Shown here one piece after another: positions 3,573 to 37,282 of a DNA stretch of 64,000 nucleotides. The stretch is from an uncultured Spirochaetia bacterium (GTDB lineage: Bacteria; Oederibacteriota; PGYV01; Palsa-1178), in NCBI GenBank assembly GCA_964443355.1, contig CAYUDX010000002.1, forward strand, positions 1,227 through 65,226, read 5' to 3'. The notes beneath the pieces are model-generated. The model was not told the DNA's origin and did no database searches. It saw only the letters and a list, made by a program, of their open reading frames with translations. Position 1 is the first letter of the stretch. Each line of letters starts with the position of its first letter. A program made the position numbers and the translations under genes.

Positions 3573-3632
3573 TGACTCACAGTATTAACTTTTTATTAAA
3601 AAAATTTCAACCCAAACAAAAATTAACAGTAG

Positions 3633-13631: not shown

Positions 13632-13733
13632 TAATTATCAATTTCCAAACAGGTTATTAACTCCTTCCGGGTAGTATTATAACCGCACCGTTGATTATTC
13701 TAATTTTAAATTTTGCAAAAAAAGGAGAGAAAT

Positions 13734-17392: not shown

Positions 17393-17598
17393 TTAAAACC
17401 TCCAAAAGGCCCGGACCGTATAAACCCGCGCCTTGTTATCCTTGATGAATATACAAAAAAAGTATTAATTGCGGGTTAAGCCACGGTGAATTTTTAAATT
17501 TGTTACGGGTGTTTTTAACTTAATTAAATCAAACGGCAGTTTAACAGCCGGTTAACAAATTAATGGTCTAATACCGCAAGAACAGGAGGGCCTAAACT

Positions 17599-19197
17599 AT
17601 GGAAGAGATGCGCATAGAGCTCACGGAGGACCTTGTAAAGGAATTCGCCGAAGAAACCATTGTAAATATTGCAAAGGCACAGGCGGCCATTGTGGCCCTC
17701 GAGTCCGCGCCGGGCGACCATGAACTTATTAATACCGCATTCAGGTCTTTTCACACCCTGAAAGGGTCGGCGGATTATCTGGGTATGACCGCGATCAAGG
17801 AATTCGCCCATTATATAGAGGATATACTCGGGGCGGTCCGGTCAAAAAAAAGTATTTTGGACAGTTTTATGGTCACGGCATTGCTGGAGGCAAGCGACGC
17901 CCTGAAGAACGAGGCGGTGCTGATAAAAAAACAGGAAAAATTCGACCGGGAGCGGTTTAACTTTGAGGTATCAATAATATACAAGGATTTCATCATGAAA
18001 ACCATACCGGGCGCCGGAGAAAAGACGCGGGAAGACGCGGAGAAAAACACGGAAAATTCCGTGGTTGATTTTTCGGGCAGCGACGGACTTCAGGATGAGA
18101 TGGAGATAAGGATAGATTCGAACAGGCTGAATTACTTCATGGCCAACCTGGGCGAGATACTGGCGCTTGAGCCTTATCTAAGGGCGGACATGTCGGAAAT
18201 CGCGGGCCAATTTCCGGAAAAGTCCGCGGCCATAGAAAGGAACCTGTCGAAATTTTCAAGGTCGATAGACCGGCTGAAGAACAGCGCTTACGGGTTAAAA
18301 ATGCTCCCTTTAAAGAGCGCGTTCGTAAAAATGTCCAGGCTCATAAGGGACCTTTCCGTGAAATCAGGTAAAAAATTAAGGCTTGTCACCAGCGGAGGCA
18401 ATGTCGAGATGGACAGGGAAATAGTCGAATCCATCGCCGAACCGATGCTTCATCTGATAAGGAACGCGAGCGACCACGGCATCGAGCCGGCCCGGGAAAG
18501 GACGGCCGCGGGAAAACCAGAGGCCGGGCTGATCAATATCAGCGCATCGATGCAGGAAGGTAGCGTTATAATAAATATAAGCGACGACGGCAGGGGGATC
18601 GACGGGAAAAAAGTGCTGAAAAAGGCCGTGGACGCGGGACTTGTATCCGGCGAAGCGGAATTGACCGAGGATGAGGTTTTCAGGTTCATAATGTCGCCGG
18701 GATTTTCGACCGCGGATAAAATAAGCGAAATATCTGGAAGAGGAGTGGGCATGGATGTGGTCGCAAAAGCCGTAAAAAAAATGGGCGGCACCGTGAGGAT
18801 AAAATCCATTCAGGGCCAGGGAACCAGGGTGTCGATGAGGCTGCCGGTGGTGCTTGCGGTGATCGAGGCTGTTGTGGTGCAGATCAACAATGAAAAATAC
18901 GCATTGCCAGCCGAGAATGCGGGATATGTATTTTGCGGAAGCGGCGGGAATGAGGGAATAAAACTTGTGGATCTGTCGGACGGAAAATGCTCGTCCGGAA
19001 TATATCTTGAGGTAATTGCAGGAGGAAAAAAGGCGGCTCTGCGGGTGGACAGAATCCTGGCCCCGCAGCCCATAGCCATAAAAAAGATACACACGTTAAA
19101 ACTGAAAGACACGCTGTTTTCGGGCGCCACCGTCCTGCAGGACGGCCGTCCGGCACTTATAATATCGGCGGATAAGCTGGTAAAAGCAGAGGCATAA
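17599..19197 (+). CDS. cheA: Chemotaxis histidine kinase CheA
   Basis: Hpt (FHTLKGSADYLG), HATPase_c (HLIRNASDHGIE, GRGVGMDVV) and a C-terminal CheW-like domain. Confidence 0.9.
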   Translation: MEEMRIELTEDLVKEFAEETIVNIAKAQAAIVALESAPGDHELINTAFRSFHTLKGSADYLGMTAIKEFAHYIEDILGAVRSKKSILDSFMVTALLEASDALKNEAVLIKKQEKFDRERFNFEVSIIYKDFIMKTIPGAGEKTREDAEKNTENSVVDFSGSDGLQDEMEIRIDSNRLNYFMANLGEILALEPYLRADMSEIAGQFPEKSAAIERNLSKFSRSIDRLKNSAYGLKMLPLKSAFVKMSRLIRDLSVKSGKKLRLVTSGGNVEMDREIVESIAEPMLHLIRNASDHGIEPARERTAAGKPEAGLINISASMQEGSVIINISDDGRGIDGKKVLKKAVDAGLVSGEAELTEDEVFRFIMSPGFSTADKISEISGRGVGMDVVAKAVKKMGGTVRIKSIQGQGTRVSMRLPVVLAVIEAVVVQINNEKYALPAENAGYVFCGSGGNEGIKLVDLSDGKCSSGIYLEVIAGGKKAALRVDRILAPQPIAIKKIHTLKLKDTLFSGATVLQDGRPALIISADKLVKAEA

Positions 19198-19429: not shown

Positions 19430-21799
19430 CTAAACGCGCACCATGGTGAGTTCCTTTAAAACGCGGTTCCAGTCGTAATTTTCCGATACGTTGCGCGCCG
19501 CCCTCTTTTTCATCTCCAGGAATTCGATGTTGCCGGATTCGCTCATGTCGACCAGGCGCGATATTTTTTCGCGCCAGTCCCCGGGGTCGTTTGAGCGGGC
19601 GACAAGGCCGGTTACCTTATCCAGTATAATATCCTGCGGGCCTCCGGTATCGGAAACAACGCAGGGAAGGCCGCAGGATTGCGCCTCGAGCACCGACATG
19701 CCGAAGGTATCGGTGACGCTGGGAAAAACGAAAATATCGGAGCCCGAAAGCACCACCGGCAGCATCTGCTGCTGTACCTTGCCGGGGAAAAATATTCTGG
19801 GAAAACAGGCGCACCTGCGCTTGAGCTCCTTCAGATGGGGCCCGTCGCCCAAAATTATAAGGTTCAATGAAGGGTGTTTTTCAAGCAGTTCCAGATATAC
19901 ATTCGCAAGAAAATCAAGGTTTTTGTCCTTTGATATCCTGCCAGTGTAGATGAGCGACGTGCCGTCGCCTATGCCGAGAAATTCGCGCAGGAAAAGACGG
20001 CCCCCGGGCCTGTTCGAGAAAAGCCTTGAATCTATGCCTCTCCTGAAAATCGACATTTTTGAGGGTTCAAAACCGCGCGAGCGCAGTATGGAAATATATT
20101 TCTCTGAGGGGACCCGGACCTCGTCCATGGAAGAATAGAACCACCTTGTGTAGGCCTCGACAATGGAGGCTGCGGATTCGTCGTTTATGATCTCCAGGGA
20201 CTGCGACGTAAAATCGGTGTGATATATGCCGGAGCACTTTATTCCCATAAGTTTTGCGGCAAGGTATCCGGTCATGCCGACAGGGCCGGGCGTTGATATT
20301 ATTATTTCGTCCGGCTCGAAGGCGTATATTTCCTTGAGCGCCGCAAGGATCGAAGGCACCTTGATGGAATACTTTTCATAATAGGGCAGCTCGAACGAAT
20401 GAATGTAAGGCACGTTTATTATGTTGAAAGGCAGCCCCTTCGCCTCCTCGCCCGAAAGGCAGGTGACAAGCTTTATATTCTTTTTATTTATATAGGATTG
20501 CCAGCCGAGGGTTTTCAGAGTGACGGAAACACCGTTGAGGTCGTTAAGGGTGTCCGTGAACCACAGTATCCTTTTTCCTTCAGGAGCGTTCAACTCGCTG
20601 AACCTCGATGCAAAAGACATGACAACGCCGCGGTTCTCATGGATGTGCCTTATTGTCGTGAAAAACGGCGCGGCCAGGAATATCCCGGTGATGGACGAGG
20701 AGACGTTCTTGATAAGGGAGACGATATCGCCCCGGTTAAGGTCCTTTTGCAGTGATACAAGCAGATTTTTTAAGAATTCGTCGGTTATCATCGTTATCTT
20801 GTCGTAAACAATGTCAAGTTTTTCCTCCACGGGAACACCGGCGCATTCCTTAAGGTCGTCGACCAGCCCGGCCAGCAGTCCCTGCATGCCCTTTTGCGCA
20901 CCGCTGAAATATTTCGCCTTTCCGACCTTGAGCTCGTTTTTCAGCGACAGCTTTTTTTTCTCAAAAACATATTCCGTAAGCTGGCTCAAAAGGCTTCCCG
21001 AGAGCCCCGAACCTTTGCGCTTGGAAAAGTCGTAGGCTATCTTGTATATGGCGAACGCAAGCCCCTTGAAATCATTGTGCCTGCCCGCGGCAAGGGACCG
21101 CTTGTCTTTTATTGACGCCAAAAATTCCGCGGGAGACTCTCCCGGGGTTTCGGTAAAAGTTTTGCCGATGAATATGCCCGCGTGGTCGTCGGTGCCGCCG
21201 GTAAAACCCTTTACCCACGGGTCGGCGCTCATGGGTTCTATCCTGTGGCGGTCGTAGATCATGTCTATAAATCCCGGGGTGAGCCCGCCAAGGATCCTGT
21301 TCCATGTCCTGTTGCTGGCGCTGTCCCTGCTGCCGTTTATCGTCTCGAAGACGTCGAAGAGCAGGATGAATTTTTCAAGGTGCGACTCCGTCAGCTTGCC
21401 GTTGACGGAATATGTGGCGTGAGCGACCGAATAGGCAAGCCTTTTTTCCCTGATATAATCGCGCAGGTCGTATATGTCCCCGCGTATCCTGTTTATATGG
21501 CCGAATTCTTCCGGAGTAAAACCGTATATCAGTATGTGCGCCTTGCAGCCGTCTTCCGGGAAGTACGTGGTCACTTCCACCCCGGAAAATGTTTTTTCGG
21601 GATATTTCTGATTCAGGAAAAACGAACCTTCGGCCGTATTATGGTCTGTAATGGTGACGAAGTCCATTTTCTTTTCAAGAGCTTCCTTATAGATGAATTC
21701 CGGCTCCGTGTAGGACTCCGCGGCCCCCAGCCTTTGCAGGAACCATTCCGACGGGTGCATCGAGTGTTTTGAATGAACGTGCATATCGGCCCTTGTCAT
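19430..21799 (-). CDS. PHP-domain phosphoesterase / GT4 (group 1) glycosyltransferase fusion protein
   Basis: N-terminal PHP motifs (ADMHVHSKHSMH, ITDHNT, GGTDDHAG). C-terminal GT-B/GT4 motifs (GRISKDKNLDFL ... FVFPSVTDTFGMSVLEAQSCGLPCVVSDTGG); 789 aa. Confidence 0.75.
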   Translation of the reverse strand: MTRADMHVHSKHSMHPSEWFLQRLGAAESYTEPEFIYKEALEKKMDFVTITDHNTAEGSFFLNQKYPEKTFSGVEVTTYFPEDGCKAHILIYGFTPEEFGHINRIRGDIYDLRDYIREKRLAYSVAHATYSVNGKLTESHLEKFILLFDVFETINGSRDSASNRTWNRILGGLTPGFIDMIYDRHRIEPMSADPWVKGFTGGTDDHAGIFIGKTFTETPGESPAEFLASIKDKRSLAAGRHNDFKGLAFAIYKIAYDFSKRKGSGLSGSLLSQLTEYVFEKKKLSLKNELKVGKAKYFSGAQKGMQGLLAGLVDDLKECAGVPVEEKLDIVYDKITMITDEFLKNLLVSLQKDLNRGDIVSLIKNVSSSITGIFLAAPFFTTIRHIHENRGVVMSFASRFSELNAPEGKRILWFTDTLNDLNGVSVTLKTLGWQSYINKKNIKLVTCLSGEEAKGLPFNIINVPYIHSFELPYYEKYSIKVPSILAALKEIYAFEPDEIIISTPGPVGMTGYLAAKLMGIKCSGIYHTDFTSQSLEIINDESAASIVEAYTRWFYSSMDEVRVPSEKYISILRSRGFEPSKMSIFRRGIDSRLFSNRPGGRLFLREFLGIGDGTSLIYTGRISKDKNLDFLANVYLELLEKHPSLNLIILGDGPHLKELKRRCACFPRIFFPGKVQQQMLPVVLSGSDIFVFPSVTDTFGMSVLEAQSCGLPCVVSDTGGPQDIILDKVTGLVARSNDPGDWREKISRLVDMSESGNIEFLEMKKRAARNVSENYDWNRVLKELTMVRV

Positions 21800-21949
21800 G
21801 GTCAGTCTCCTTATGATTTGGTCGCTATTTCTTTCTTAATACAAGTATGCCGGGGCGGCGCCCGAATAAGCTTAAGCACAAATTAATTTTGTGTTAAACC
21901 CAGGGCGGCGGTATTAACGTAAAATTAAAAGCAAATTCACCCCGCTTTA

Positions 21950-23140
21950 ATGGGGCCGGCCTATATTCATGTCATGATAAAAAAGAGCAGCGGCGAAAAT
22001 GCCGGGAAGCTTCCCGGAGAGTTAAGGATAAATGAAGGTCTGGAACAATGGGAAAAAGAGGCGTTCCTCAGGGTCGTTTCCCCGGTGCTTTCCGGGGAAC
22101 AGGAAAAGACCATACTTACGCCCGGGCGTATTTCCGGCCTCCAGCAGGAAGTCCTGGCGGTCCACTGGCACCCGGAGCACATCCCCATGGAGCTCATAGA
22201 AAAAAGGATAAAGGCCTCGTTTCCGGACGCGCAAAACAGCCTTATAATCCCAACGCAGCACAACACCCTTATGGAGTTGAACGGTTTTGCGGGGGTTGAA
22301 ATAGACTGCTTTTCCCAGGAATTTGACAGGAAAGTGCAGCTTCTGCTGCACTTTACCGCCGACAAAGCCGCAAAAGCCGGGAAAATAAAGACCCTGGCCG
22401 GGCATACCTTCAGGTACAGGTCAAAACAGCTTTTTGACATCCTTCACGCGCTTTCAAGCGGAGATGTGAATGAACACAGGAAAAAGGCGGTCCTTGCCAC
22501 CGGCGCAGGGGAAGATACAGTGGAGTTTGTAAGGATATACGCCCTGAAACTCATGAAACTTATCGAGGCCTCGTCAGGCGCCGTAAACGAGATATTTTTG
22601 AAGAACAAGCTCATCAGGGATTATTTTGACGAACTCAAAGGCGTATACGACACGCACATCATAGATATGGCCCAGATATTCATAAAGTCGGTTAAAGAAT
22701 CGGTAAAAGCCTCTTTTTCCACCGGATATTTTTACAGGACGCAGGATGTCATATCCGAGGCAAGGGCGTGCGGAGCGGGAATCGTCGTGCCGCATCCGGA
22801 ACAGTTCTGGCCGATACTGCTTGCGGATTACGATGTTGACGGGTATGAGGTCTGGAACCCCCAGTCAAGGCAGTTCACGGAGTTCCTCATCGGGGCCGTC
22901 AAAAAGAAAAATTCGTACAGGAAATCCTCAAGCAGGCCGGTTCTCACATTTATGGGGGACGACACGCATATGGGAGAAAAGATAAGAAAAGCCGCGGTGA
23001 TGGACCTTGACAAGGCGGGCAGGGAGATCGGGATGCAGCCGGCATGGGACGACCTTGACATAAGGGAGGCGCTGAAAGCGGCGAAAGCGTCCAGGGACCA
23101 GGTTATAAACGAATACAGGCAGAGGCTCTTGCAGGCCTGA
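21950..23140 (+). CDS. Hypothetical protein with weak PHP-like metal-binding motifs
   Basis: VHWHPEH, GAGIVVPHPEQFW and MGDDTHMG resemble PHP His/Asp motifs. No clear RBS; start uncertain. Confidence 0.4.
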   Translation: MGPAYIHVMIKKSSGENAGKLPGELRINEGLEQWEKEAFLRVVSPVLSGEQEKTILTPGRISGLQQEVLAVHWHPEHIPMELIEKRIKASFPDAQNSLIIPTQHNTLMELNGFAGVEIDCFSQEFDRKVQLLLHFTADKAAKAGKIKTLAGHTFRYRSKQLFDILHALSSGDVNEHRKKAVLATGAGEDTVEFVRIYALKLMKLIEASSGAVNEIFLKNKLIRDYFDELKGVYDTHIIDMAQIFIKSVKESVKASFSTGYFYRTQDVISEARACGAGIVVPHPEQFWPILLADYDVDGYEVWNPQSRQFTEFLIGAVKKKNSYRKSSSRPVLTFMGDDTHMGEKIRKAAVMDLDKAGREIGMQPAWDDLDIREALKAAKASRDQVINEYRQRLLQA

Positions 23141-23158: not shown

Positions 23159-23446
23159 ATGGCGTCCGCAAACGACGACTTTAAGTATGAATCGCTCCAG
23201 GACAGGCAGTCGATAGCAAAATACCTTGACGCCCTGAAGGAAGGGTTTTCAAGCGGCAAGATAGCCCTGGGAAGCAGGGAAAAGCAGATAGTTTTTGAAC
23301 CGGCCGGGCTTTTAAGGCTCGAGGTAAAGGCAAGAAGAAAAGGCGACAGGGTAAAGATCAGCCTTAAGTGCGGCTGGCGGGAAGAGAGCCAGGCGAGGGA
23401 ATCACGGGCCGAAACGCTCGTGATCGAATCCAAAAAGCAGGGGTAA
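23159..23446 (+). CDS. Small amphi-Trp-like protein, paralog 1 (95 aa)
   Basis: Aligns with the ORFs at 27122 and 27441: A.EYL..L, GK(I/V).(L/I), ..LEVKA(R/K)(R/K)K, (K/E)(I/L)S(L/W)..W. AGGAGG RBS. Confidence 0.65.
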   Translation: MASANDDFKYESLQDRQSIAKYLDALKEGFSSGKIALGSREKQIVFEPAGLLRLEVKARRKGDRVKISLKCGWREESQARESRAETLVIESKKQG

Positions 23447-23449: not shown

Positions 23450-25093
23450 TTGGAATTTGTAAAAGCCGTCGAGGAAAATTTCAGATTGATGGTGCTTGAG
23501 GTCACAAAACAGCTTGAGGATACGCTCAAGCTCCTCGGCGCGTATTCAAAACAGCTGGCGGAAAAAGTGCGCAACAGGGACGATTACATAGACAGTATGA
23601 AGAACATAGTGGAAAACAAGAATTTTTCATCCGTGGCGGGCAGGGAAAAAGTCGACAAAAAAACCCTCCATAACATGTGGGCGGTAAACACAATAGTGCA
23701 CAACCTGGAACATGTCGCCGACCTTGCGGTGAACATAGCCGACCAGGCCGGATATTTTTCGGAGGCCGATTACATAAAGAAGTACGACTATCCGGAATAT
23801 TTTAAAAAAATACTGGACGCCGTGTCCCTTGTGCCGAAAGCCCTATTTTCGGGGTCCATAAACCAGGCTTTGAAAATATGCAGCGTTGAATACGAGGTCG
23901 ACGCCATGTACGCGCAGGACCTCAAACACATAATAGAAGAGATGCGGTTTTCAAGGGAGGCGGGGAACATGGTGACTTCCATATTCATCCTGCAGTGCGC
24001 CGAACGCATGGGCGACTCCATTTTAAACATGGGCGAGGCCATAATATCCCTTGTAATGGGGGAAAGGATGAAGATACGCCAGTTCCAGGCGCTCGAGAAC
24101 ACGCTCTCAACGGCCGAGGAGAAGCAGAGGATAAGCGAATTCTCGCTTGAATCGGTCGGCGACACCAGGTCGGGAAGCACCATACGCAAGGTGTTCGAGC
24201 CCGGAGGCGACCAATCGTCGTCAAAATGGGTGGTATTCAAGGAAGGCCTTACGTCAAAGCTGGCAAAGGAAAAGGAAAACATGGAAGCCTGGGAAAAAAT
24301 CGAGCAGGGCCTTCCGCCGGGGATATTCGGCTACCAGGCGAACGGAAGGACCGCCTCCATAATACTTGAATACTTAAGCGGCAGGAACATGAAAGACGTT
24401 GTGATAAACGAAAAAAGCGCTAACGTAAAGGAAGCCATGGGGCTGGTAAAATCCACCCTTGAAAGGGTCTGGACCAGGACCCTTAAAAGACAGCAGACAA
24501 AGGCCATGTATATGGAACAGCTCGCCTCGAGGATAGGCGACGTTTACAGGGTCCATCCGGATTTTTTGCACAGTGAAAGCAGGATAGGAGGCCTTGAGGT
24601 CCCGTCATTCGAAGAGATGCTGAAAACGGCCGTACAGATCGAAAAAAAGCTCGAGGCGCCGTTCTCCACGTTCATTCACGGGGATTTCAACATCGACAAT
24701 ATAATATACAACGCGGCGGAAAAAAGGATAAATTTTATCGACCTTCACAGGTCGTCCAACAACGATTACGTCCAGGACGTTTCGGTTTTCATTGTATCGA
24801 ATTTCAGGATGCCTTTTTTTGAGCCCACAGTGAGGAAAAAATTGAACTGGGTAATAAACGATTTCTACGATTTTGCCGCGGAATTCGCGCGCAAAAACGG
24901 CGACGCCACGTTCGACGCGAGGCTGGCCTTCGGCCTGATAAGGTCGTTTTTGACCTCCACAAGGTTTGAATTCAACGGGGAGTTCGCGAAAATCATGTAC
25001 CTGAGGTCGGTATATCTTACGGAAAAAATAATAGCGCACGGCGCGGGGCCCTGGGATGAATTTTACGTCCAGAAGGATATTTTCACATATTGA
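23450..25093 (+). CDS. PhoU-like domain / aminoglycoside-phosphotransferase-like kinase fusion protein
   Basis: N-terminal half contains two PhoU-like helical repeats (...HNLEHVADLAVNIADQ... / ...QCAERMGDSILNMGEAI...). C-terminal half has APH/choline-kinase-fold motifs (IHGDFNIDNIIY, INFIDLHRSS). 4-nt gap after the upstream small gene. Confidence 0.6.
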   Translation: MEFVKAVEENFRLMVLEVTKQLEDTLKLLGAYSKQLAEKVRNRDDYIDSMKNIVENKNFSSVAGREKVDKKTLHNMWAVNTIVHNLEHVADLAVNIADQAGYFSEADYIKKYDYPEYFKKILDAVSLVPKALFSGSINQALKICSVEYEVDAMYAQDLKHIIEEMRFSREAGNMVTSIFILQCAERMGDSILNMGEAIISLVMGERMKIRQFQALENTLSTAEEKQRISEFSLESVGDTRSGSTIRKVFEPGGDQSSSKWVVFKEGLTSKLAKEKENMEAWEKIEQGLPPGIFGYQANGRTASIILEYLSGRNMKDVVINEKSANVKEAMGLVKSTLERVWTRTLKRQQTKAMYMEQLASRIGDVYRVHPDFLHSESRIGGLEVPSFEEMLKTAVQIEKKLEAPFSTFIHGDFNIDNIIYNAAEKRINFIDLHRSSNNDYVQDVSVFIVSNFRMPFFEPTVRKKLNWVINDFYDFAAEFARKNGDATFDARLAFGLIRSFLTSTRFEFNGEFAKIMYLRSVYLTEKIIAHGAGPWDEFYVQKDIFTY

Positions 25094-25110
25094 TCGAAAA
25101 GGAGAAGGTC

Positions 25111-26004
25111 ATGGCGAATAAAAAGATAGGCGTTGTCGGCATAGAGGGCGCCTGGTCCACGGAAATACTTGCGGATACGATAAAAAACCGCACGGGTTTT
25201 GTGAGGATAATAGACATAGAAAAACTTTCCGTCGACCTGGACACCGGAGCCGCTGTTTTTAACGGCGAGGATATCTCGGGATATGACGCGCTTATCATAA
25301 AAAAGATAGGCAGGGATTACAGCCCGGCAATGCTGGACAGGCTTGAAATGCTCAGGTTCCTCAATGAAAGGGGGATGAAAATATTTTCAAGGCCCGACAG
25401 GATAATAAACGTGCTCAACAGGCTCACCTGCACCGTGACCCTGAAGAACGGCTCCATTCCCGTCCCTGAGACCGCCGTCACCGAAGACACCGACGAAGCC
25501 TGTGACATAGTAAAAAAATATAAAAAGGCGGTTTTTAAGCCCCTTTTCACATCCAAGGCGCGCGGAATGACCGTTATATCGGATACGGTCAACATGCACG
25601 ACGAGATAGAAAAGTACAAGAAATCCAACAGCCTGATGTACATCCAGAGGATACTGGACATAGGCGAAAGGGACCTCGGCCTCGTGTTCGTCGGCGGAGA
25701 ATACCTGGCGACTTACGCGCGCGTAAAAAACAACGACGCATGGAACACGACCACAAACAGCGGCGGAAGCTACATGATACACAACCCGTCCAAAGAGATC
25801 ATCAGGCTCGCGCAGAAAGCGCAGGACCTTTTTAAGCTGGATTTTACCTGCGTGGATATTGCGGAGACCCCGGCCGGGCCGGTCGTTTTCGAGGTATCCG
25901 CCTTCGGCGGGTTCAAGGGGGTATATGAATCAAGCGGGATCGAGGCCGCGGAAGTATATCTAAACTATGTATTAAAGGAGCTCAAAAATGGAAAAAAAAG
26001 CTGA
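25111..26004 (+). CDS. ATP-grasp ligase, RimK/glutathione-synthetase-like
   Basis: RimK-like N-terminus (KIGVVGIEGAWSTEILADTIK) and ATP-grasp core (VFKPLFTSKARGM ... GGEYLATYARV ... VDIAETPAGPVVFEVS). AAGGAG RBS precedes ATG 25111; the track start at 25090 overlaps the upstream stop. Confidence 0.7.
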   Translation: MANKKIGVVGIEGAWSTEILADTIKNRTGFVRIIDIEKLSVDLDTGAAVFNGEDISGYDALIIKKIGRDYSPAMLDRLEMLRFLNERGMKIFSRPDRIINVLNRLTCTVTLKNGSIPVPETAVTEDTDEACDIVKKYKKAVFKPLFTSKARGMTVISDTVNMHDEIEKYKKSNSLMYIQRILDIGERDLGLVFVGGEYLATYARVKNNDAWNTTTNSGGSYMIHNPSKEIIRLAQKAQDLFKLDFTCVDIAETPAGPVVFEVSAFGGFKGVYESSGIEAAEVYLNYVLKELKNGKKS

Positions 26005-27103
26005 CACTGTTAGCTGGATAGCGGCGGACCTTGCCGCTTCGCATGAACCAGACAAGACCCTTTTTCTCCAGCTGGGCGACTGCGTGATCAGGGTGCAGTC
26101 GAATTCCGCGGAGCTTATCATGAAGCTTTCGGCATACTATAAAGGTTTCATAGGCGGCAGGACCGCGGATATATGCGTGATGGCCTTCGAGATAGACGAG
26201 CCGGATTTCGGCCGTGAATTCATCAAGAAAGAGCCGGAGCCGGGCAAAACGCGCATCAAAGAGGAATATTCCGACCTTAAGGACGGAAGGATAGTCCGCA
26301 AACTTCTTACGGGCATGCATTTTGTCTTCGGAAAGGGAATTAATCTGGCCGCCGGAAAATGCGTCGAAAATTACAACCAGGTTGTGAATTTTATCAACAA
26401 CCGTTACATAGAAAGAATGCTCAAGGAAGGATGCCTGCTCCTTCATTCGGCGGGCGTGGTGCTTAAAGGAAGGGGGCTGGCCGTGGCGGGGTTTGCCGGC
26501 AAGGGAAAATCCACGCTTGCGCTTACGCTTGTCGGAAGGGGGATGAAATTCCTGAGCAACGACAGGCTCATGGTAAAAAGATCGCAGCAGGGTGTGGCGA
26601 TGTACGGCATACCCAAACTTCCCAGGATAAACCCGGGGACGGTCCTTGCGAGCCCGCTGCTGAAAAAAGTGATACCAGAGAATGAAAGGGTTGAATTCGA
26701 GAAAATCCCGGCGGAAAAGCTGTGGGAGCTGGAACACAAATACGACGTTGACATCGACGAAATTTTCGGGCCGGACAGGTTCGTGCTCACGGCCGACCTT
26801 AAGGCGCTTGTGATAATAAACTGGGACAGGGACGGCGCTGCCCCTTTCGCGTTGAAAGAAGTGAACCTCGGGGATAGGATGGACCTTGTGCGCGCGTACA
26901 TGAAAACACCGGGATTGTTCTTTGAAATGTCGGAAAACACTGCCCCGCCGGATCTTTCTGAGATGGCGTATGTAAACGCCCTCAGGAACGTAAGGATATA
27001 TGAAATAACCGGTTCGGTAAATTTTGAAGAGGCCGCGGACCAGTGCATAAGCCTGCTTGAGCAGGACAAATCCGGCAGCTTCAGTCTGAGCGCCGGAAAA
27101 TAA
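25988..27103 (+). CDS. HPr kinase/phosphorylase C-domain-like (HprK-related) kinase
   Basis: LLLHSAGVVLKGRGLAVAGFAGKGKSTLALTLVGRGMKFLSNDRLMV shows the HprK-C P-loop plus the SxD motif. 371 aa with a novel N-terminal domain; 17-nt overlap with the ATP-grasp gene. Confidence 0.65.
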   Translation: MEKKADTVSWIAADLAASHEPDKTLFLQLGDCVIRVQSNSAELIMKLSAYYKGFIGGRTADICVMAFEIDEPDFGREFIKKEPEPGKTRIKEEYSDLKDGRIVRKLLTGMHFVFGKGINLAAGKCVENYNQVVNFINNRYIERMLKEGCLLLHSAGVVLKGRGLAVAGFAGKGKSTLALTLVGRGMKFLSNDRLMVKRSQQGVAMYGIPKLPRINPGTVLASPLLKKVIPENERVEFEKIPAEKLWELEHKYDVDIDEIFGPDRFVLTADLKALVIINWDRDGAAPFALKEVNLGDRMDLVRAYMKTPGLFFEMSENTAPPDLSEMAYVNALRNVRIYEITGSVNFEEAADQCISLLEQDKSGSFSLSAGK

Positions 27104-27121
27104 AAAAGGAGGATGGACAAA

Positions 27122-27409
27122 ATGGGAAAACATGAGATCAAACTCAAAGGGAACCTTGATGCGGGAAAAGCGGCGGAGTACCTGTCGGATCTTGCCGGCA
27201 GCATGAGGAACGGCTCGATTTACATCCAGAAAGGCGGCGAGTTCGTGAATTTGAGGCCTTTTGGCAGCCTTGAATTCGAGATCGAGGCGAAGAGGAAGAA
27301 GCACAAGGAAAAAATAACCATCGAACTGTCCTGGAGCAGGAACGAGAAGGACGAAATAGAGGATGACGACCTGAAGATCGCCTCACCCGACCAGGAAAAA
27401 AAAGCGTAA
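27122..27409 (+). CDS. Small amphi-Trp-like protein, paralog 2 (95 aa), acidic C-terminal tail
   Basis: Paralogous to 23159 and 27441. AGGAGG RBS; the ATG at 27113 abuts the RBS, so the ATG at 27122 is preferred. Confidence 0.65.
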   Translation: MGKHEIKLKGNLDAGKAAEYLSDLAGSMRNGSIYIQKGGEFVNLRPFGSLEFEIEAKRKKHKEKITIELSWSRNEKDEIEDDDLKIASPDQEKKA

Positions 27410-27440: not shown

Positions 27441-27743
27441 ATGGGTAAAAAAGAAGTTGAGCTGAATTCGGAAGCGACGCTGGAAAAGGCAGTTGAGTAC
27501 CTGGAAAGCATCATAGCCGGGCTGAAAAAAGGCAAAGTTTTCATACAGCAGGGCGACGAAGTGGTCGAACTGACCCCGAACAAGACGGTGTCCATTGAAG
27601 TCGAGGCAAAACAGAAAAAGCACGGGGAAAAGGTGTCGTTCAAGCTGAGCTGGAAAAAGGAATGCGCGGAGGAAGCGGAAAAAGAAGAAGAGGAAACATT
27701 CAGGATAACGTCCGCACAACCGGATGTAAAAGCGGAAAAATGA
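27441..27743 (+). CDS. Small amphi-Trp-like protein, paralog 3 (100 aa), acidic C-terminal tail
   Basis: Paralogous to 23159 and 27122. CGGAGG RBS with 8-nt spacing. Confidence 0.65.
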   Translation: MGKKEVELNSEATLEKAVEYLESIIAGLKKGKVFIQQGDEVVELTPNKTVSIEVEAKQKKHGEKVSFKLSWKKECAEEAEKEEEETFRITSAQPDVKAEK

Positions 27744-27825: not shown

Positions 27826-27877
27826 TTAACCCAATCTTAATAATTTTTTGGTAATAATTTAATAAATTCTGTATAAT
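27826..27877 (+). promoter_or_regulatory. Pho-box-like array: 11-bp periodic hexamer direct repeats (TTAACC/TTAATA/TTGGTA/TTAATA/TGTATA) running into a TATAAT -10
   Basis: Hexamers at 27826, 27837, 27848, 27859 and 27870; TATAAT at 27872-27877, just upstream of the response-regulator gene. Confidence 0.5.
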
Positions 27878-27906
27878 ATGTGTATCAAAAAAGGCGGTTA
27901 TTAAAA

Positions 27907-28584
27907 ATGGAAAAATTGATCGCAATAGTCGACGATGAGGACGACATACGCGAACTCGTGTCGATAAATCTGAAAAAGGCCGGTTTTAAGACCAAGGAAT
28001 ATTCCGACGCGGACTCGCTCATAAAATCACTTTCAAAATCCCTGCCCGACCTCATCATTCTCGACATAATGATGCCCGGCACCGACGGCATCGAGACCGT
28101 CAAGATATTAAAAAGGGACGACAGGTATTCCATGATCCCGGTCATACTGCTTACGGCAAAGAGCGACGAGCCTGAAAAAGTGGTCGGCCTCGAGATCGGC
28201 GCGGACGATTACGTCACAAAGCCATTTTCGCCCAGGGAGCTTGCGGCCAGGGTAAAGGCCGTATTAAGGCGCAGGGAAAATATCCGGGAGACGTCGGAAA
28301 TCGTCGAGATAGGACCGGTCACGATAGACATGGACAAGCACGAGGTCGCCGTCAGGGGAAAAAAAGTCGAGCTCACAGCGACTGAATTCAACATTCTGCA
28401 CATACTCGCCCTTAAAAAGGAGCGCGTGCTTTCGCGCGAACAGATACTGGACAACCTGTGGGGAAGCGAAAAAACCGTGGTCGACCGCACGATAGACGTT
28501 CACATAAAACATTTGCGCACAAAACTCGGGCCTGCCGGGAAAATGATAAGGAACATCCGCGGCGTGGGGTATAAAATCGAATAA
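27907..28584 (+). CDS. OmpR-family response regulator, PhoB/PhoP-like
   Basis: Receiver domain (IAIVDDEDDIRELV ... LIILDIMMPGTDG) plus a winged-helix output domain; upstream of a PhoR-like kinase and the pst operon. Confidence 0.8.
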   Translation: MEKLIAIVDDEDDIRELVSINLKKAGFKTKEYSDADSLIKSLSKSLPDLIILDIMMPGTDGIETVKILKRDDRYSMIPVILLTAKSDEPEKVVGLEIGADDYVTKPFSPRELAARVKAVLRRRENIRETSEIVEIGPVTIDMDKHEVAVRGKKVELTATEFNILHILALKKERVLSREQILDNLWGSEKTVVDRTIDVHIKHLRTKLGPAGKMIRNIRGVGYKIE

Positions 28585-30314
28585 TGAAAAACAAACTTTT
28601 CATCAGGATATTTTTGAGCTACATAATAATCGCGGCGGCAACCGCGGTCCTGGCGGGATTTTTTTCCATCAACTCCATCACATCCCATACGATCGAGACC
28701 CAAAAATCGGTACTGAAAAAGATCATCATTGTCATAACCCCGTCCGTCATCCCTTACCTTAACAACCCTGGAAGCGAGGGGCTCGAGGATTTTGTCAGGA
28801 AAATGAGCGCCGGTACGGATATAAGGTTCAGTTTTATCAACAAGGAAGGGCGCGTGCTGGCGGATTCCGAACACGACCCGGAGACCATGGACAACCACAG
28901 CTACAGGCCCGAGGTAAGGGCCGCCCTTGACGGCAAGGACGGGTATGCCATGCGCTACTCCAATACAATAAAGGAAAACATGCTTTATTACGCATCCCCT
29001 TATTTTGGCGAAAAGAACACCGTCACAGCCGTCATAAGGGCCTCGATGCCGGTTTCGGACATAAGCGCGCTGTCCGACGCCATGATAATGGAGATAATAA
29101 AGGCCCTGTTCCTGGTCCTGCTTGTTGCGCTCGCGGCGGCTTATTTATATTCGCAGAATCTGTACAGGCCCATAAAGGAGCTGGCCATAGCCTCTGGCAA
29201 GGTGGCGGCAAAGGATTTTGACGTAAGGGTGGCTGTCAGGCAACGCGATGAAATGCACGAACTGGCCGAGAATTTTAATTTCATGACGTCGCAGATAAAG
29301 CAGCTTTTTTCCGACCTGACCGAAAAACAGAAACAGCTGGATTCCATAATAGATTCCGTGTCCGAAGGGCTGCTTGTGGTGGACGAAAAGGGAAGGATAG
29401 TGCTCATAAACAAAAGTTTCCGCGCGATCGCCGGCGCGGAGATAAAGGAAGGCGGATTTTACTGGGAATGCTTCATGCCGGTAAAATTCAACGAAATGGT
29501 GGAAAGAGGCTTGAAGAACAGGAGCTATTTCGTGGAACAGCTCGACATCAAGGGCAGGACATACCTTTGCAGCGCGAATTTTCTCGACGAAAAAAAGCAG
29601 GCGGCTTTCGTCCTTTATGACATATCCGAGTTCAAGGACCTGGAACGCATCAAGAAGGATTTTGTGGCAAACGTGTCCCACGAACTGCGCACGCCTCTGA
29701 CTGCCATAAAGGGTTTTGCCGAGACACTGGAGCAGGATTCAAAGGACGCGGAATCGCGCCATTACCTCGACATAATAAAAAAGAACGCCGACAGGCTCAT
29801 CAATATAGTCACGGACCTGCTGACATTGTCCCAGCTGGAAGAGATGGAAAAGCTGGGTGACACCGAAAAAGTCAACATGGCAGAGGTCGTCGCCAACGCC
29901 GCAAAGATATTTGAACAGGCGATCAAGGCAAAGGGGATAGAAATACGAGTGAACATGGACAAAAATCTGCCGGCGATAAAAGGGGATTTTTTCAGGCTCG
30001 AGCAGGTATTCATAAACCTGATAGACAATGCCGTAAAATACACGGAAAAAGGGAACATCGAAATATCGGCAAAATCGGACGGTAAACAAATAATAATGAA
30101 GGTGGCGGATACCGGCGCGGGAATAGCGCAGGACCACCTGCCCAGGATATTCGAAAGGTTCTACGTGGTGGACAAGTCGCGCTCCAGAAAACTCGGCGGC
30201 ACCGGGCTCGGGTTATCCATAGTAAAGCACATAATAGGGCTCCACAACGGCCGCATCACGGTCGTCAGCGAGCAGGGAAAAGGCACGACATTCGAGATAA
30301 CGCTCCCGCTTTGA
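28584..30314 (+). CDS. Sensor histidine kinase, PhoR-like (TM-HAMP-PAS-HisKA-HATPase)
   Basis: HisKA H-box SHELRTPL; N, G1 and G2 boxes (NLIDNAVKYT, DTGAGI, GGTGLGLSIV); two TM segments. Confidence 0.8.
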   Translation: MKNKLFIRIFLSYIIIAAATAVLAGFFSINSITSHTIETQKSVLKKIIIVITPSVIPYLNNPGSEGLEDFVRKMSAGTDIRFSFINKEGRVLADSEHDPETMDNHSYRPEVRAALDGKDGYAMRYSNTIKENMLYYASPYFGEKNTVTAVIRASMPVSDISALSDAMIMEIIKALFLVLLVALAAAYLYSQNLYRPIKELAIASGKVAAKDFDVRVAVRQRDEMHELAENFNFMTSQIKQLFSDLTEKQKQLDSIIDSVSEGLLVVDEKGRIVLINKSFRAIAGAEIKEGGFYWECFMPVKFNEMVERGLKNRSYFVEQLDIKGRTYLCSANFLDEKKQAAFVLYDISEFKDLERIKKDFVANVSHELRTPLTAIKGFAETLEQDSKDAESRHYLDIIKKNADRLINIVTDLLTLSQLEEMEKLGDTEKVNMAEVVANAAKIFEQAIKAKGIEIRVNMDKNLPAIKGDFFRLEQVFINLIDNAVKYTEKGNIEISAKSDGKQIIMKVADTGAGIAQDHLPRIFERFYVVDKSRSRKLGGTGLGLSIVKHIIGLHNGRITVVSEQGKGTTFEITLPL

Positions 30315-30347
30315 TCCCGTTTTTACCCATTTCCGATTAATCAGAAA

Positions 30348-30390
30348 TTAACAATCCAATCATACCGCCTTAACACCCTTTTCTTATAAT
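30348..30390 (+). promoter_or_regulatory. Pho-box-like array: TTAACA-N5-ATCATA-N5-TTAACA-N5-TTCTTA overlapping a TATAAT -10
   Basis: Hexamers at 30348, 30359, 30370 and 30381; TATAAT at 30385-30390, upstream of the porin gene. Confidence 0.5.
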
Positions 30391-30494
30391 TTCATCGTAA
30401 AAATAAAAAGCCAGTGAGCTTTATGTCAAATAAAAAAACACGGGAATTTTTGAAGGATGAAGACAGGGATCTTAAAAAACCAAGGAGGAAGGAA

Positions 30495-31613
30495 ATGAAA
30501 AAAGCACTAAGTTTTGTTTTAGCAGCAGTTTTTGCCCTCACGTTCTTTGCCTTTGCTTTTGCGGACGTCACGACGACATTTTACGGAATGCAGTGGCTCC
30601 GGTATGATTACCAGGTGTACGGGGGATCTTACGGCCCGGCGACATACGCAGGCGGAGGAGACAGCGACAACACGTTTTCCATACCGAGGACGTATCTGAG
30701 ATGGAAAATGGTGGGGGACGGATTTGAAGGGAACATAACCCTTGACATCAACAACGTGGACGGCGGACAGAATTCGGGAAAAAACTGGTCAAAAGACCTG
30801 CCGGGAGCCCTCACAACAGGCTCAATAGACTGGGCAATATGGGTAAAGAAGGCTTCTGTTGATTTCACAAACATACCGTTCCTTTCAAATATCGACGCCG
30901 CGATAAGGGTAGGACAGCAGGACGTGTATTTCGGAACGATCGATACATGGTCATATCCTACGATAGAGAAAGCCATCGAAGACAAGAACGGAGTCATCAG
31001 CAGCGCAGACCAGGGAATATCGCTCGTCGGAAAGCTCGGCGGATGGGGCGGATATGAAGCGGCTGTTTACAACGGGACCGGATACAAGACAACAGCGATC
31101 GATTCAAACCAGGACATCACCGACAAAGCGTATGATATGAGCGTGCTTTTGACCCCTATCGCGGGAATTTATGCAAGGGCATCCTATTATCACAGGCTCA
31201 CCAATCCCCTCGGCACAAAGACTTACGGTTATAACACATCGGCTTTGGTCGTTGGCGGAGCATCCGGACCGATAGAAGGTTTCGTGGAATATTTGACGGC
31301 CAATGACGCAAGCAAATACACCGCGGGCTCGGTATCAGGAGTCCTCGTCGGATGGGAAGGCTATATGGGCATAAAGCTTACAGACATGGTACAGCTTGTC
31401 GCCAGGATAGACACATACGACCCGGATACAAGGACGCACAATAATGAAGTCAACACATACATAGCAGGCGTGAACATAGCCATGACGAACGCGACAACTT
31501 TACAGCTTGATTACCAGCTTGACGCCAACAAGTTCCCGTACCTCGGCGGCGCCAAAGACAACAACAATTCCAACAACAACCAGTTCCTTGCGCAGCTCGT
31601 CTGGAAATGGTAA
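30495..31613 (+). CDS. Outer-membrane beta-barrel porin (possibly phosphate-selective, OprO/P-like by context)
   Basis: Signal peptide, alternating amphipathic strands and a C-terminal aromatic (LVWKW). AGGAGG RBS precedes ATG 30495. Located between phoBR-like genes and pstS. Confidence 0.55.
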   Translation: MKKALSFVLAAVFALTFFAFAFADVTTTFYGMQWLRYDYQVYGGSYGPATYAGGGDSDNTFSIPRTYLRWKMVGDGFEGNITLDINNVDGGQNSGKNWSKDLPGALTTGSIDWAIWVKKASVDFTNIPFLSNIDAAIRVGQQDVYFGTIDTWSYPTIEKAIEDKNGVISSADQGISLVGKLGGWGGYEAAVYNGTGYKTTAIDSNQDITDKAYDMSVLLTPIAGIYARASYYHRLTNPLGTKTYGYNTSALVVGGASGPIEGFVEYLTANDASKYTAGSVSGVLVGWEGYMGIKLTDMVQLVARIDTYDPDTRTHNNEVNTYIAGVNIAMTNATTLQLDYQLDANKFPYLGGAKDNNNSNNNQFLAQLVWKW

Positions 31614-31680
31614 CATTGTAGAAACAGAAAAACAGGATCCGAGTAGTTAAATAAAAACTGATAAAAATCAGGAGGGTAAG

Positions 31681-32523
31681 ATGAAAAATTTAACAAAGGC
31701 GGCGGCAGTTCTCGCGCTTGCCGCGGTACTTACGGTTCCCGCTTTCGGATGGAATTTTCCGTGGGCGTCGAAATCCGCGAACAAGCTTGCGCTTCAGGGC
31801 TCCACAACGGTCCTTCCGATAGCGCAGAAAGAAGCGGAAGAGTTCATGAAGGCGAATAAAGATGCGGACATATCGGTTTCAGGCGGAGGATCGGGCGTCG
31901 GAATATCGGCCCTGATAGACAGCTCGTGCGATATCGGCGATTCCTCAAGGTCGATAAAGGCGAAAGAAATAGTCATGGCAAAGCAGAAAGGCGTAAATCC
32001 CGTGGGAACGATCATCGCCAATGACGGCATTGCGGTCGTCGTTAACAACGGGAACAAAGTAGAGGCGCTTTCGCTCGACCAGCTGAAGGCCATTTATTCC
32101 GGCCAGATAACAAAGTGGAGCCAGGTAGGCGGATCCGACGACACCATAGTGATAATTTCGCGCGACAGCGCATCCGGCACATTCGAGGTTTTCAACGAGC
32201 TGGTCCTGAAAGGCGCGAAACTGCGCGAGGATTCACTCATGCAGGCTTCCAACAAGGAAGTGGCGGAGACGGTCGCAAAAACACCGGGCGCGATAGGCTA
32301 CGTAGGGCTGGGATACCTCTCGAGCGACCTTAAGGCCCTTAAGATCGCGGGAGTCATGCCTTCCGATGCGACCGTATTGAACGGCACATACAAGCTCTCA
32401 AGGCCCCTTTATATGTACACGAACGGCGACCCTTCCGGGCTCGCAAAAACCTTCATCGACTTTATTTTAAGCGACGAAGGACAGAAAATAGTCAAAGATG
32501 TCGGGTTTGTGGTGGTAAAGTAA
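31681..32523 (+). CDS. pstS: Phosphate ABC transporter substrate-binding protein
   Basis: Signal peptide, then the PstS-family core (LQGSTTVLPIAQKEAEEF ... SGGGSGVGI). Confidence 0.85.
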   Translation: MKNLTKAAAVLALAAVLTVPAFGWNFPWASKSANKLALQGSTTVLPIAQKEAEEFMKANKDADISVSGGGSGVGISALIDSSCDIGDSSRSIKAKEIVMAKQKGVNPVGTIIANDGIAVVVNNGNKVEALSLDQLKAIYSGQITKWSQVGGSDDTIVIISRDSASGTFEVFNELVLKGAKLREDSLMQASNKEVAETVAKTPGAIGYVGLGYLSSDLKALKIAGVMPSDATVLNGTYKLSRPLYMYTNGDPSGLAKTFIDFILSDEGQKIVKDVGFVVVK

Positions 32524-32672
32524 ATCCAGAGACCTGCAATAAAAGTTCCTGAAAAGGCCCGCCTTTTGGCGGGCCTTTTCTTTTTAACACAATCTTAACA
32601 ATCGGGCAACTTTCCATTAACATGCGGGCCATATAATATGTTGGAAAATAGAAGAAAATAACGGAGAAAAAA

Positions 32673-34428: not shown

Positions 34429-34461
34429 TGGAAACGGCGAAAACGACGACGGGAGAAAACC

Positions 34462-35226: not shown

Positions 35227-35266
35227 TTTTTTTTCGCTCAAAACAAATACGCGATCGGGAGGTTTT

Positions 35267-37230: not shown

Positions 37231-37248
37231 TGTACGGATGTCCGTACA
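37231..37248. promoter_or_regulatory. Perfect palindrome TGTACGGA-tg-TCCGTACA (candidate GntR/PhnF operator)
   Basis: Lies 35 bp upstream of the GntR gene start at 37283. Confidence 0.45.
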
Positions 37249-37282
37249 AGTCGCGACTAATAATGCTTGGAAAGGACTCTCC

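Follow-up and report, generated by a model that had tools for sequence, protein, structure and literature searches.

The PhoU-kinase gene and its product

The window analysed here, a 64-kb stretch of contig CAYUDX010000002.1 from an uncultured Spirochaetia bacterium, carries on its + strand (23450-25093) an open reading frame (ORF) for a 547-aa protein in which a PhoU domain is fused to a kinase of the APH fold. This description of the protein, which we refer to as PhoU-kinase, is based on the ORF itself, profile matches, an AlphaFold2 (AF2) model and alignments. The ORF starts with TTG, 3 nt past the stop codon of an upstream amphi-Trp gene, and a G-rich stretch is located 7-10 nt before this start. 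Public databases already hold a 547-aa protein (P0001) that is 100% identical to PhoU-kinase and has the same start, and the nearest named relatives belong to metagenome-assembled genomes of Candidatus Goldiibacteriota and candidate division FCPU426. The amphi-Trp gene, which begins at 23159, and the kinase gene share one reading frame, in which TAA and one codon (AAA) precede the TTG. This same-frame junction could serve translational coupling or permit occasional read-through.

The AF2 model was built on 36 homologues and compared with the Protein Data Bank (PDB) using Foldseek. Residue conservation was assessed in an alignment of 36 sequences with 41-86% identity to the PhoU-kinase of the window, and all PhoU-kinase residues described below as invariant are invariant in this alignment. 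The model has a mean predicted local distance difference test (pLDDT) score of 88.6, and Foldseek divides it cleanly into a PhoU half (residues ~1-210) and a C-terminal kinase half. The original prediction for this gene held that two PhoU-like repeats form the N-terminal half of the 547-aa protein, and on this point Pfam, AF2 and Foldseek agree. A missing PhoU fold and a missing kinase fold, which it had named as grounds for giving up the idea, were both examined, and profiles and structure matched both folds.

The PhoU module

The PhoU domain comprises residues 1-207 (23450-24070, + strand) and consists of two three-helix repeats, as is indicated by Pfam, TIGR02135, AF2 and Foldseek. PF01895 matches PhoU-kinase in two stretches (E=4e-20, 72 bits versus a cut-off of 23.5), and positions 8-212 of the 212 positions in the TIGR02135 model align to residues 5-207. 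As an equivalog, however, the protein scores 72 bits against a TIGR02135 cut-off of 130, and it is a fused protein of 547 aa. This score argues that the N-terminus of PhoU-kinase is a PhoU-type domain and not a PhoU orthologue. In the AF2 model the module folds into six long helices (2-30, 34-63, 70-100, 114-134, 137-165 and 171-203), and residues ~1-210 match the crystal structures of PhoU proteins 4q25, 1t72, 2i0m and 1sum with target template modelling (TM) scores of 0.81-0.89 and root-mean-square deviations of 1.9-2.9 Å. The structures matched come from Pseudomonas aeruginosa, Aquifex, Streptococcus pneumoniae and Thermotoga. By sequence, the module matches 1t72 (Aquifex) with 3e-9 and 4q25 with 1.3e-8, and its identity to the window's own PhoU is ~24%.

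Both repeats carry acidic motifs. In repeat 1 this is E87-H-V-A-D91 (ExxxD; 23708-23722, + strand), which has R43-D-D-Y-I-D48 as its partner in helix 2, and in repeat 2 it is E185-R-M-G-D189...N193.G195-E196 (24002-24037, + strand), with the partner C144..E147...D151 in helix 5. The invariant residues include D48, N85, E87 and D91 of repeat 1, and C144, E147, D151, E185, R186, G188, D189, N193, G195 and E196 of repeat 2. The E/DxxxD pairs D44/D48, E87/D91, E147/D151 and E185/D189 are fully or almost fully invariant, and E87-H-V-A-D91 falls opposite LERIGD in the alignments with the window's own PhoU and with the solved PhoU proteins. Such E/DxxxD pairs are the metal-cluster ligands in the PhoU of Thermotoga maritima. 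Judged from the sequence, it is plausible that the PhoU module gates the kinase by phosphate or metal.

PhoU-kinase thus shares with canonical PhoU (of Escherichia coli, and 1SUM, 1T72 and 4Q25) the two-repeat six-helix bundle with E/DxxxD pairs in helices 2/3 and 5/6, and the genomic association with pstSCAB and phoBR. Canonical PhoU is, however, a free protein of ~220 aa, whereas the version in the window is covalently fused to a kinase. According to a survey of PhoU-domain proteins, the three recognised clades each pair with a phosphate importer, and other multi-domain PhoU architectures were explicitly left out of this survey (PMC13170248). It covers the Na/Pi transporter NptA with its C-terminal PhoU domain and PitR (PhoU_div), which resemble PhoU-kinase in that a PhoU-type helical module is either part of, or the partner of, an effector that handles phosphate (PMC13170248). 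In PhoU-kinase, by contrast, this module has as its partner a soluble kinase, which forms part of an enzyme cassette, and not an importer.

The kinase domain

Residues ~231-547 (24140-25093, + strand) form a kinase domain of the APH/choline-kinase fold, as judged by Pfam, Foldseek and alignment. The Pfam profile APH (PF01636) matches the C-terminal half with 29.4 bits versus a cut-off of 23.2, and EcKL and Choline_kinase match as well. With Foldseek, APH(3')-Ia/IIa/IIIa and choline/ethanolamine kinases were retrieved for this half with E-values down to 5e-8 (APH(3')-Ia), whereas eukaryotic-type protein kinases are far poorer matches (TM 0.24 for PAK1). The ATP-anchoring pair (24239-24271, + strand) consists of the beta3 Lys K264 (VFKEG) and the alphaC-type Glu E274, which in the AF2 model lie within strand 259-267 and helix 268-284, respectively; F263, K264, G266, K270 and E274 are invariant. 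The catalytic motifs HGDxxxxN and IDL, which had been noticed in IHGDFNIDNIIY (H410-G-D412...N417) and INFIDLHRSS (D431), are indeed located there and are invariant. The catalytic loop H410-G-D412-F-N414-I-D-N417 (24677-24700, + strand) has H410, G411, D412, N414 and N417 as its invariant positions, and the Mg-binding Asp D431 of I-D-L is followed by the invariant R434-S435 (24737-24745, + strand). In the alignment, HGDFNIDN...IDL...DYVQD of PhoU-kinase stands opposite HGDFSLDN...IDV...DRYQD of APH(3')-Ia. An active ATP-dependent kinase, as predicted from the intact motifs, is the best explanation.

PhoU-kinase has the bilobal fold, the beta3 Lys, the HGDxxxxN motif, the Mg-binding Asp and the D-x-Y/R-Q-D motif in common with APH(3') and choline/ethanolamine kinases (PF01636, PF01633). 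It differs from these enzymes by scoring below the resistance models, by six invariant Arg residues and by the 230 N-terminal residues that make up the PhoU module and linker. The six Arg residues (R434, R453, R462, R491, R498 and R505) are located in the substrate lobe, which suggests that the substrate of PhoU-kinase is anionic, the opposite of what is bound by aminoglycoside and choline kinases.

The view that the gene encodes an aminoglycoside or macrolide resistance phosphotransferase, or merely reflects an annotation or assembly artefact, can be regarded as effectively refuted. APH(3') enzymes are the top structural matches and there is a weak match to NF033068, but this APH(3') score is only 27 bits versus a cut-off of 205 and the other APH models stay far under their cut-offs. 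Moreover, invariant Arg residues abound in the substrate lobe, whereas aminoglycosides are cationic, and the conserved operon context contains no mobile-element or resistance genes. An antibiotic-resistance APH was rejected for these reasons, and an assembly or annotation artefact because more than 1,470 proteins, drawn from independent assemblies, have the same ~545-aa architecture.

Spread of the PhoU-kinase family

The homologues in a 90%-clustered database number more than 1,470, almost all with a length of 540-555 aa. An exhaustive search of 50% representatives yielded 257 clusters (50% identity) with E<1e-30 and, among the best 150 of these 257 clusters, nearly all proteins are ~545 aa long and match PhoU-kinase end to end. 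PhoU-kinase is encoded in at least 447 species-level genomes. The family is represented in Thermodesulfobacteriota, Myxococcota, Nitrospinota, Zixibacteria, Ignavibacteria, Planctomycetota, Spirochaetia, Coatesbacteria, Acidobacteriota and FCPU426/Goldiibacteriota, and its carriers belong to hundreds of lineages that are mostly anaerobic and uncultivated. The fusion is obligatory in this family. Accretion of domains as a one-off event was rejected, since the same architecture occurs throughout a large conserved family. The fusion had been described as unusual, which holds true relative to characterised proteins but not for the databases, where the architecture is common. The names given to the family in databases go by domain only ('PhoU domain-containing protein' or 'phosphotransferase'), and NCBIfam contains no model dedicated to it. 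It should be noted that the PhoU domain, the APH-fold kinase and the GAK cassette described below are each of known kinds, and that their combination is a variant and not a categorically new entity.

The GAK cassette

The GAK system (Haft) is represented in NCBIfam/TIGRFAMs by TIGR04354-TIGR04358 and was named from genome context only. To count gene orders, the ORFs of 80 related loci were searched with the proteins of the window, and CofD-like and XXXCH proteins were counted over the same 80 loci with targeted phmmer queries. In these loci, which belong to many phyla, the gene order is conserved: PHP-like, amphi-Trp, PhoU-kinase, ATP-grasp, HprK-B, with or without CofD-like, and amphi-Trp.

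In the window, the kinase gene is directly preceded by a class-1 amphi-Trp gene for a protein of 95 aa (23159-23446, + strand; TIGR04354 with 72 bits, PF20068). The same holds for 75 of the 80 loci, and a conserved F..ES[LV]QD motif is found at the N-terminus of the class-1 proteins. The stop of the kinase gene is overlapped by 4 nt by the gene for the GAK ATP-grasp ligase, which is RimK/MptN-like (25090-26004, + strand; TIGR04356 with 437 bits, cut-off 300) and follows the kinase directly in 77 of the loci. Next is an HprK-related kinase B of the P-loop type (25988-27103, + strand; TIGR04355 with 464 bits, cut-off 200), present in 62 loci. These matches bear out the originally predicted operon, in which PhoU-kinase is accompanied by an ATP-grasp enzyme and an HprK-like kinase. 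Two class-2 amphi-Trp genes then encode proteins of 98 aa (27113-27409, + strand; TIGR04354 with 63.7 bits) and 100 aa (27441-27743, + strand; 62.1 bits), and the class-2 consensus contains ...ELSW...L.I[ST]S..P. The scores of the three amphi-Trp genes (62-72 bits) compare with a cut-off of 31. No terminator-like site that would convincingly interrupt the operon was found on the + strand.

A CofD-like protein (TIGR04357) is encoded after HprK-B in 52 of the 80 loci, and an XXXCH-domain protein in front in 32. Neither was found anywhere in the 64-kb window, and the cassette in the window is therefore a reduced GAK variant. HprK-B is missing in the loci of Desulfonatronospira and Desulfonatronovibrio (L018, L021, L023, L026, L029, L033 and L049), where the ATP-grasp gene is directly followed by the CofD-like gene. 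In these loci PhoU-kinase is therefore the sole kinase and supplies the 'K' of GAK. Even kinase relatives at 29-30% identity still have the GAK ATP-grasp gene directly next to them, as exemplified by L083 (1020-3971) and L085, whose kinases of ~545 aa show no detectable Pfam PhoU domain. Genes for a STAS protein (RssC-like anti-sigma antagonist) and a NUDIX protein are located upstream of the kinase in L083. One member of the family stands alone, adjoining a cytochrome oxidase operon. Since the gene order and the adjacency of kinase and ATP-grasp genes persist, even at 29-30% identity, PhoU-kinase is a core GAK component.

The cassette resembles the GAK system in that its ATP-grasp, HprK-B and amphi-Trp proteins score above the trusted cut-offs and in that the gene order is conserved. 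It differs by the addition of PhoU-kinase and the PHP-like protein, neither of which is listed in the published GAK model set, and by the lack of the CofD-like and XXXCH proteins. A comparison of the seven cassette proteins with the PADLOC defence models gave no match, so that an anti-phage system is unsupported.

What the cassette acts on may be considered from two sides, the first being the amphi-Trp proteins. It is conceivable that the cassette modifies proteins or peptides without any sensing of phosphate. In that case the amphi-Trp proteins would receive phosphate groups from the two kinases, and the ATP-grasp enzyme would glutamylate or cross-link them. The PhoU module would be just a helical scaffold that serves dimerisation or the docking of substrate, and the proximity of Pho genes would reflect co-regulation. 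This would fit the tight coupling of amphi-Trp to the enzymes, with a 3-nt gap in the window and a position directly upstream in 75 of the 80 loci, and the Ser-containing conserved motif in each of the two amphi-Trp classes. It is established that relatives of HprK are protein or peptide kinases and that RimK adds Glu to a protein C-terminus, and the ATP-grasp enzyme of the window weakly matches maturases of ribosomally synthesised and post-translationally modified peptides (TIGR04187, 2e-8). Furthermore, in Dissulfuribacter thermophilus the amphi-Trp protein DITHS69_2464 is among the 20 most abundant proteins, beside GroEL and EF-Tu (PMC13490349). Such an abundance suggests a stoichiometric role of amphi-Trp (structural, carrier or buffer) over a catalytic one. 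However, the four PhoU E/DxxxD motifs are kept across phyla, which is unexpected for a mere scaffold, and structurally the kinase is nearest to small-molecule kinases and not to protein kinases, PAK1 reaching only the TM score mentioned above. For the ATP-grasp enzyme, the small-molecule ligase MptN is a much closer match (154 bits) than RimK, the ligase for S6 (54 bits), and the C-termini of the amphi-Trp proteins are not conserved. Altogether, we consider modification of proteins without phosphate sensing rather unlikely.

The PHP-like first gene and its exchangeable counterparts

The first gene of the operon is a 396-aa ORF (21950-23140, + strand) for a divergent metal phosphoesterase of the PHP family, an assignment that derives from the predicted fold and invariant residues. 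The protein has no match in Pfam or NCBIfam, and its profile gave only noise against the sequences of the PDB. When it was compared by hhalign with the window's own PHP domain, the probability was 1.3%, with the H-N and G-x-E motifs aligned. The AF2 model, with a pLDDT of 90.1, was matched by Foldseek with a probability of 1.00 to RNase AM (9etk, 4.6e-5), to the Bifidobacterium PHP phosphoesterase (3e0f/3o0f) and to the pAp phosphatase Cv1693 (2yb1). The PHP metal-ligand pattern is invariant in the family of the 396-aa protein (H72xH74, H104, E117, D119, H134, H282, D337 and H340). On the basis of predicted fold and invariant residues, the protein may be classed as a PHP-like phosphoesterase. 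It occupies the first-gene position in 71 of the 80 loci, and its family comprises more than 1,600 homologues that are highly conserved and all named 'hypothetical'. The true start is probably downstream of the annotated one, at M9 or later, because residues 1-24 are unstructured (pLDDT <50) and unaligned, homologues aligning from about residue 26, and because the ATG at 21950 falls within a conserved TTAATG unit that is a possible -10 element.

In loci that lack the PHP-like protein, other phosphoesterases stand in for it. L081 (4379-7408, P0167) encodes a triple fusion of 1,009 aa, in which a calcineurin-like metallophosphatase forms the N-terminal part and is joined to PhoU and the APH-fold kinase. 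This GAK locus lacks the PHP-like and class-1 amphi-Trp genes, and a gene for a histidine phosphatase (His_Phos_1) precedes the triple fusion. The Metallophos domain of L081 shows a weak ApaH-like match, and its His_Phos_1 protein is of the CobC/PGAM type. In L083 it is the NUDIX hydrolase gene that precedes the kinase, in place of the PHP-like gene. A kinase with a replaceable phosphoesterase is the recurring logic. That a phosphoesterase always adjoins the kinase while its family varies argues for a kinase/phosphoesterase cycle.

The alternative is that the cassette constitutes a small-molecule pathway, leading to a phosphorylated and possibly nucleotide-linked metabolite or signal. The kinase and HprK-B would then make phospho-intermediates, the CofD-like protein would transfer a phospho-group taken from a nucleotide-activated donor, the ATP-grasp enzyme would add an alpha-glutamate cap as in F420 and methanopterin, the phosphoesterase would degrade the product, and the amphi-Trp proteins would bind or carry it. 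Besides the APH/choline-kinase fold of the kinase and the CofD-like protein in 52 of the 80 loci, this is supported by the profile matches of the ATP-grasp enzyme (MptN, 4.8e-45 and 154 bits; RimK, 54 bits; LysX, 1.7e-26), which is closest to MptN, CofF and LysX. In addition, the exchangeable esterases are all of a nucleotide or metabolite type (PHP pAp-phosphatase/RNase AM, NUDIX, His_Phos_1 and Metallophos), and the six invariant Arg residues would suit a poly-anionic ligand. Yet the cassette of the window combines three amphi-Trp genes with the absence of CofD-like and XXXCH proteins, across the 80 loci the cassette has no conserved enzyme that would build a carbon skeleton, and the universal presence of small, abundant proteins is left unexplained. 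Therefore, we regard such a pathway as possible but doubtful. The 'modification system' of the original prediction stands as one of two candidate readings, but a small-molecule pathway is equally possible.

A resemblance to the LysW/LysX/LysZ amino-group carrier pathway may serve as a lead only. In both cases a small protein is combined with a RimK-family ATP-grasp enzyme (see the LysX match above) and a kinase acting in succession. The amphi-Trp proteins, however, lack a conserved acidic C-terminal tail, the kinase is of another family, and there is no reductase or aminotransferase. By analogy, a LysW-like carrier scheme might reconcile the protein and small-molecule models.

The link to phosphate

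The operon is preceded by a Pho-box-like element (21872-21950, + strand) in the 150-bp divergent promoter that it shares with a PHP-GT4 gene on the opposite strand. The element consists of two sets of TTAAnn units with an 11-bp period, namely TTAAGC/TTAATT/TTAAAC and then TTAACG/TTAAAA/TTCACC/TTAATG. The exact pattern TTAA-N7-TTAA-N7-TTAA occurs once in 64 kb, ahead of the operon, where 0 occurrences are expected. Sites with at least three of four units number five on the + strand, two of which are ahead of the operon and one each before phoB, porin and pstC; in shuffled intergenic sequence the repeat pattern had a mean of 0.024 hits. Over four orthologous promoters, including those of L001-L003, the TTAA units are invariant while the spacers vary. 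Direct repeats with an 11-bp period are a hallmark of PhoB/PhoP boxes, and TTAACA is the unit of Bacillus PhoP.

The Pho block itself, with phoB, phoR, porin, pstS, pstC, pstA, pstB and phoU, is located at 27880-35926 (+ strand), as delineated by ORFs. The presence of the Pho regulon and a canonical phoU downstream of the kinase had been predicted correctly: phoB starts at 27880 and is followed by phoR, the porin gene, pstSCAB and phoU (35267-35926), the product of which matches TIGR02135 with 216 bits. The phoB promoter (27826-27877, + strand) contains TTAACC/TTAATA/TTGGTA/TTAATA units that overlap a promoter-like site, TTGGTA-18-TATAAT, and further Pho-box-like units are found at 30337 (porin) and 32584 (pstC).

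The association extends to other genomes. Among 65 other loci, 15 have periodic repeats ahead of the operon versus 2.8 expected, the repeat types being (T/C)TAAC in several phyla and TGTCAC in a Desulfovibrio. Genes for pstS/C/A or a free-standing phoU are located within 10 kb in 19 of the 80 loci in varied arrangements; they precede the cassette in Desulfovibrionaceae, Desulfurivibrionaceae, Desulfococcus and Syntrophus, and follow it in the clade of the window. On the strength of these promoter sequences and gene neighbourhoods, the cassette is very probably Pho-regulated in this genome, and often elsewhere. A connection with phosphate had been proposed from the start, and the shared promoter repeats and the Pst/PhoU synteny make it stronger than could be seen at that time. 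In the GAK descriptions that we found, a link to the Pho regulon is not mentioned.

It may also be asked whether the PhoU module is a sensor at all. It might instead dock on PstB and/or PhoR, so that the output of the kinase would track transporter activity at the Pst-PhoR complex. Canonical PhoU is known to contact PstB and PhoR (PMC13170248), the PhoU model is matched by the module from end to end, and many loci have pst and phoR genes as neighbours. On the other hand, the genome already has a separate canonical phoU, to the product of which the module is only ~24% identical, and most loci are not beside pst. Docking in place of sensing thus appears quite improbable.

A working model for PhoU-kinase

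Taking these findings together, we favour the view that the window encodes a Pho-controlled GAK cassette with an active PhoU-kinase as a core subunit, and we assign a probability of about 0.55 to this reading together with the following working model. The PhoU bundle would either inform the kinase lobe, in cis, of the status of phosphate or metal, or dock the kinase on PstB/PhoR. The kinase would then phosphorylate an anionic substrate which the translationally coupled ATP-grasp ligase either makes or receives. This substrate might be the co-encoded amphi-Trp protein (with the invariant Ser in ES[LV]QD as the candidate site) or a group tethered to this protein, or else a nucleotide-like phospho-metabolite, and the upstream phosphoesterase would reverse the kinase step. 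Phosphate gating, the identity of the substrate and reversibility are the elements of this model that we infer.

Several observations weigh against it. The predicted TM score (pTM) of the AF2 model is 0.70, so that the relative placement of the two domains is only moderately confident. The ligand of the PhoU acidic motifs is unsettled even for canonical PhoU, and conservation of the motifs is therefore no proof of phosphate gating. The distant family members P0265 and P0243 keep the length of the protein but lose the detectable Pfam PhoU signal. As regards regulation, direct repeats at 11-bp intervals are a common feature of the OmpR family of regulators as a whole, and the assignment to PhoB derives from repeats that are common to the phoB, porin and pstC promoters of one genome. 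Strict periodic repeats are present in only the 15 of 65 loci mentioned above, and pst or phoU lies within 10 kb in only about one quarter of the loci. Lastly, a literature search for the PhoU-kinase fusion, the GAK system and amphi-Trp retrieved no paper.

How PhoU domains sense the phosphate status is a long-standing question, and the known forms act via transporters and PhoR only, without a simple biochemical read-out. PhoU-kinase could provide a direct read-out of PhoU sensing, in that kinase activity could be followed with and without phosphate, metals and motif mutants. The GAK system, which is likely to belong to the Pho regulon, is thereby given a physiological anchor for the first time, as well as two additional core components, PhoU-kinase and the cryptic PHP-like phosphoesterase. 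Any function found for PhoU-kinase would serve to annotate thousands of genes.

A bolder version of the favoured reading is that PhoU-kinase represents a fourth, transporter-independent class of PhoU proteins. In this scenario, the PhoU bundle would turn the phosphate or metal status directly into kinase activity, and the abundant amphi-Trp proteins or a nucleotide-like messenger would in consequence undergo reversible phosphorylation, and glutamylation, in parallel to PhoR-PhoB. We put this forward tentatively, and as it stands it seems unlikely. If true, PhoU sensing would for the first time become accessible to an enzymatic assay, and bacteria would possess a counterpart in logic to SPX/inositol-pyrophosphate signalling. 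The eukaryotic system is comparable by analogy only, as a helical phosphate-status domain is coupled there to a kinase and a phosphatase by which the response to phosphate starvation is controlled; there is no homology, and the context here is a bacterial operon.

Other genes in the window

The gene that diverges from the Pho-box-like promoter common to the operon (19430-21799, - strand) encodes a 789-aa fusion of an N-terminal PHP/CehA-type metallohydrolase and a family 4 glycosyltransferase (GT4), as indicated by the Pfam domains Glycos_transf_1/Glyco_transf_4 and by CehA/McbA. It is kept at this position only in L001-L004 and is located outside the conserved cassette. The best NCBIfam matches of this PHP-GT4 protein are glycolipid and GlcNAc-phosphatidylglycerol synthases, and it is a candidate for membrane or envelope remodelling upon phosphate starvation. 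The porin gene between phoR and pstS (30414-31613, + strand) encodes a putative outer-membrane protein of 399 aa that has no match in Pfam and is kept at this position in L001-L003. It might be selective for phosphate and belong to a porin family not yet described.

Taken together, the genes of the window make up an island for phosphorus acquisition and scavenging. Upstream of the cassette there are genes for a Metallophos protein (12222-13631) and a PAP2 phosphatase (13713-14453). The Pho block is followed by a gene of the low-molecular-weight protein tyrosine phosphatase/ArsC type (35953-36381), a phnF-like gene for a GntR regulator (37175-38008) and, from 38012 to about 47000, genes for a phosphonate-binding protein, a permease and carbon-phosphorus lyase, among them those for PhnI and a PhnM-like amidohydrolase. 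Two more genes, further downstream, encode a phosphodiesterase/EEP fusion of 786 aa (51052-53412) and a lipase of the patatin-like type (59499-60515).

A tyrosine recombinase gene (9472-10353, + strand) encodes a Phage_integrase domain and a SAM-like N-terminal domain; the product is probably of the XerC/D type, and no link of this gene to the cassette was seen. Weaker, two-unit TTAA-N7-TTAA sites are located shortly ahead of three genes, at 37170-37195 (phnF-like gene), 17465-17557 (CheA-like gene, 17599) and 3585-3610 (IMP dehydrogenase gene, 3675), of which the site before the phnF-like gene fits an extended Pho regulon. The CheA-like histidine kinase (17599-19197, + strand) is short, with Hpt and HATPase_c as its only Pfam domains. 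Its gene is adjoined by one for a methyl-accepting chemotaxis protein (14897-16876, - strand), and it is found beside the cassette in L001 and L002.

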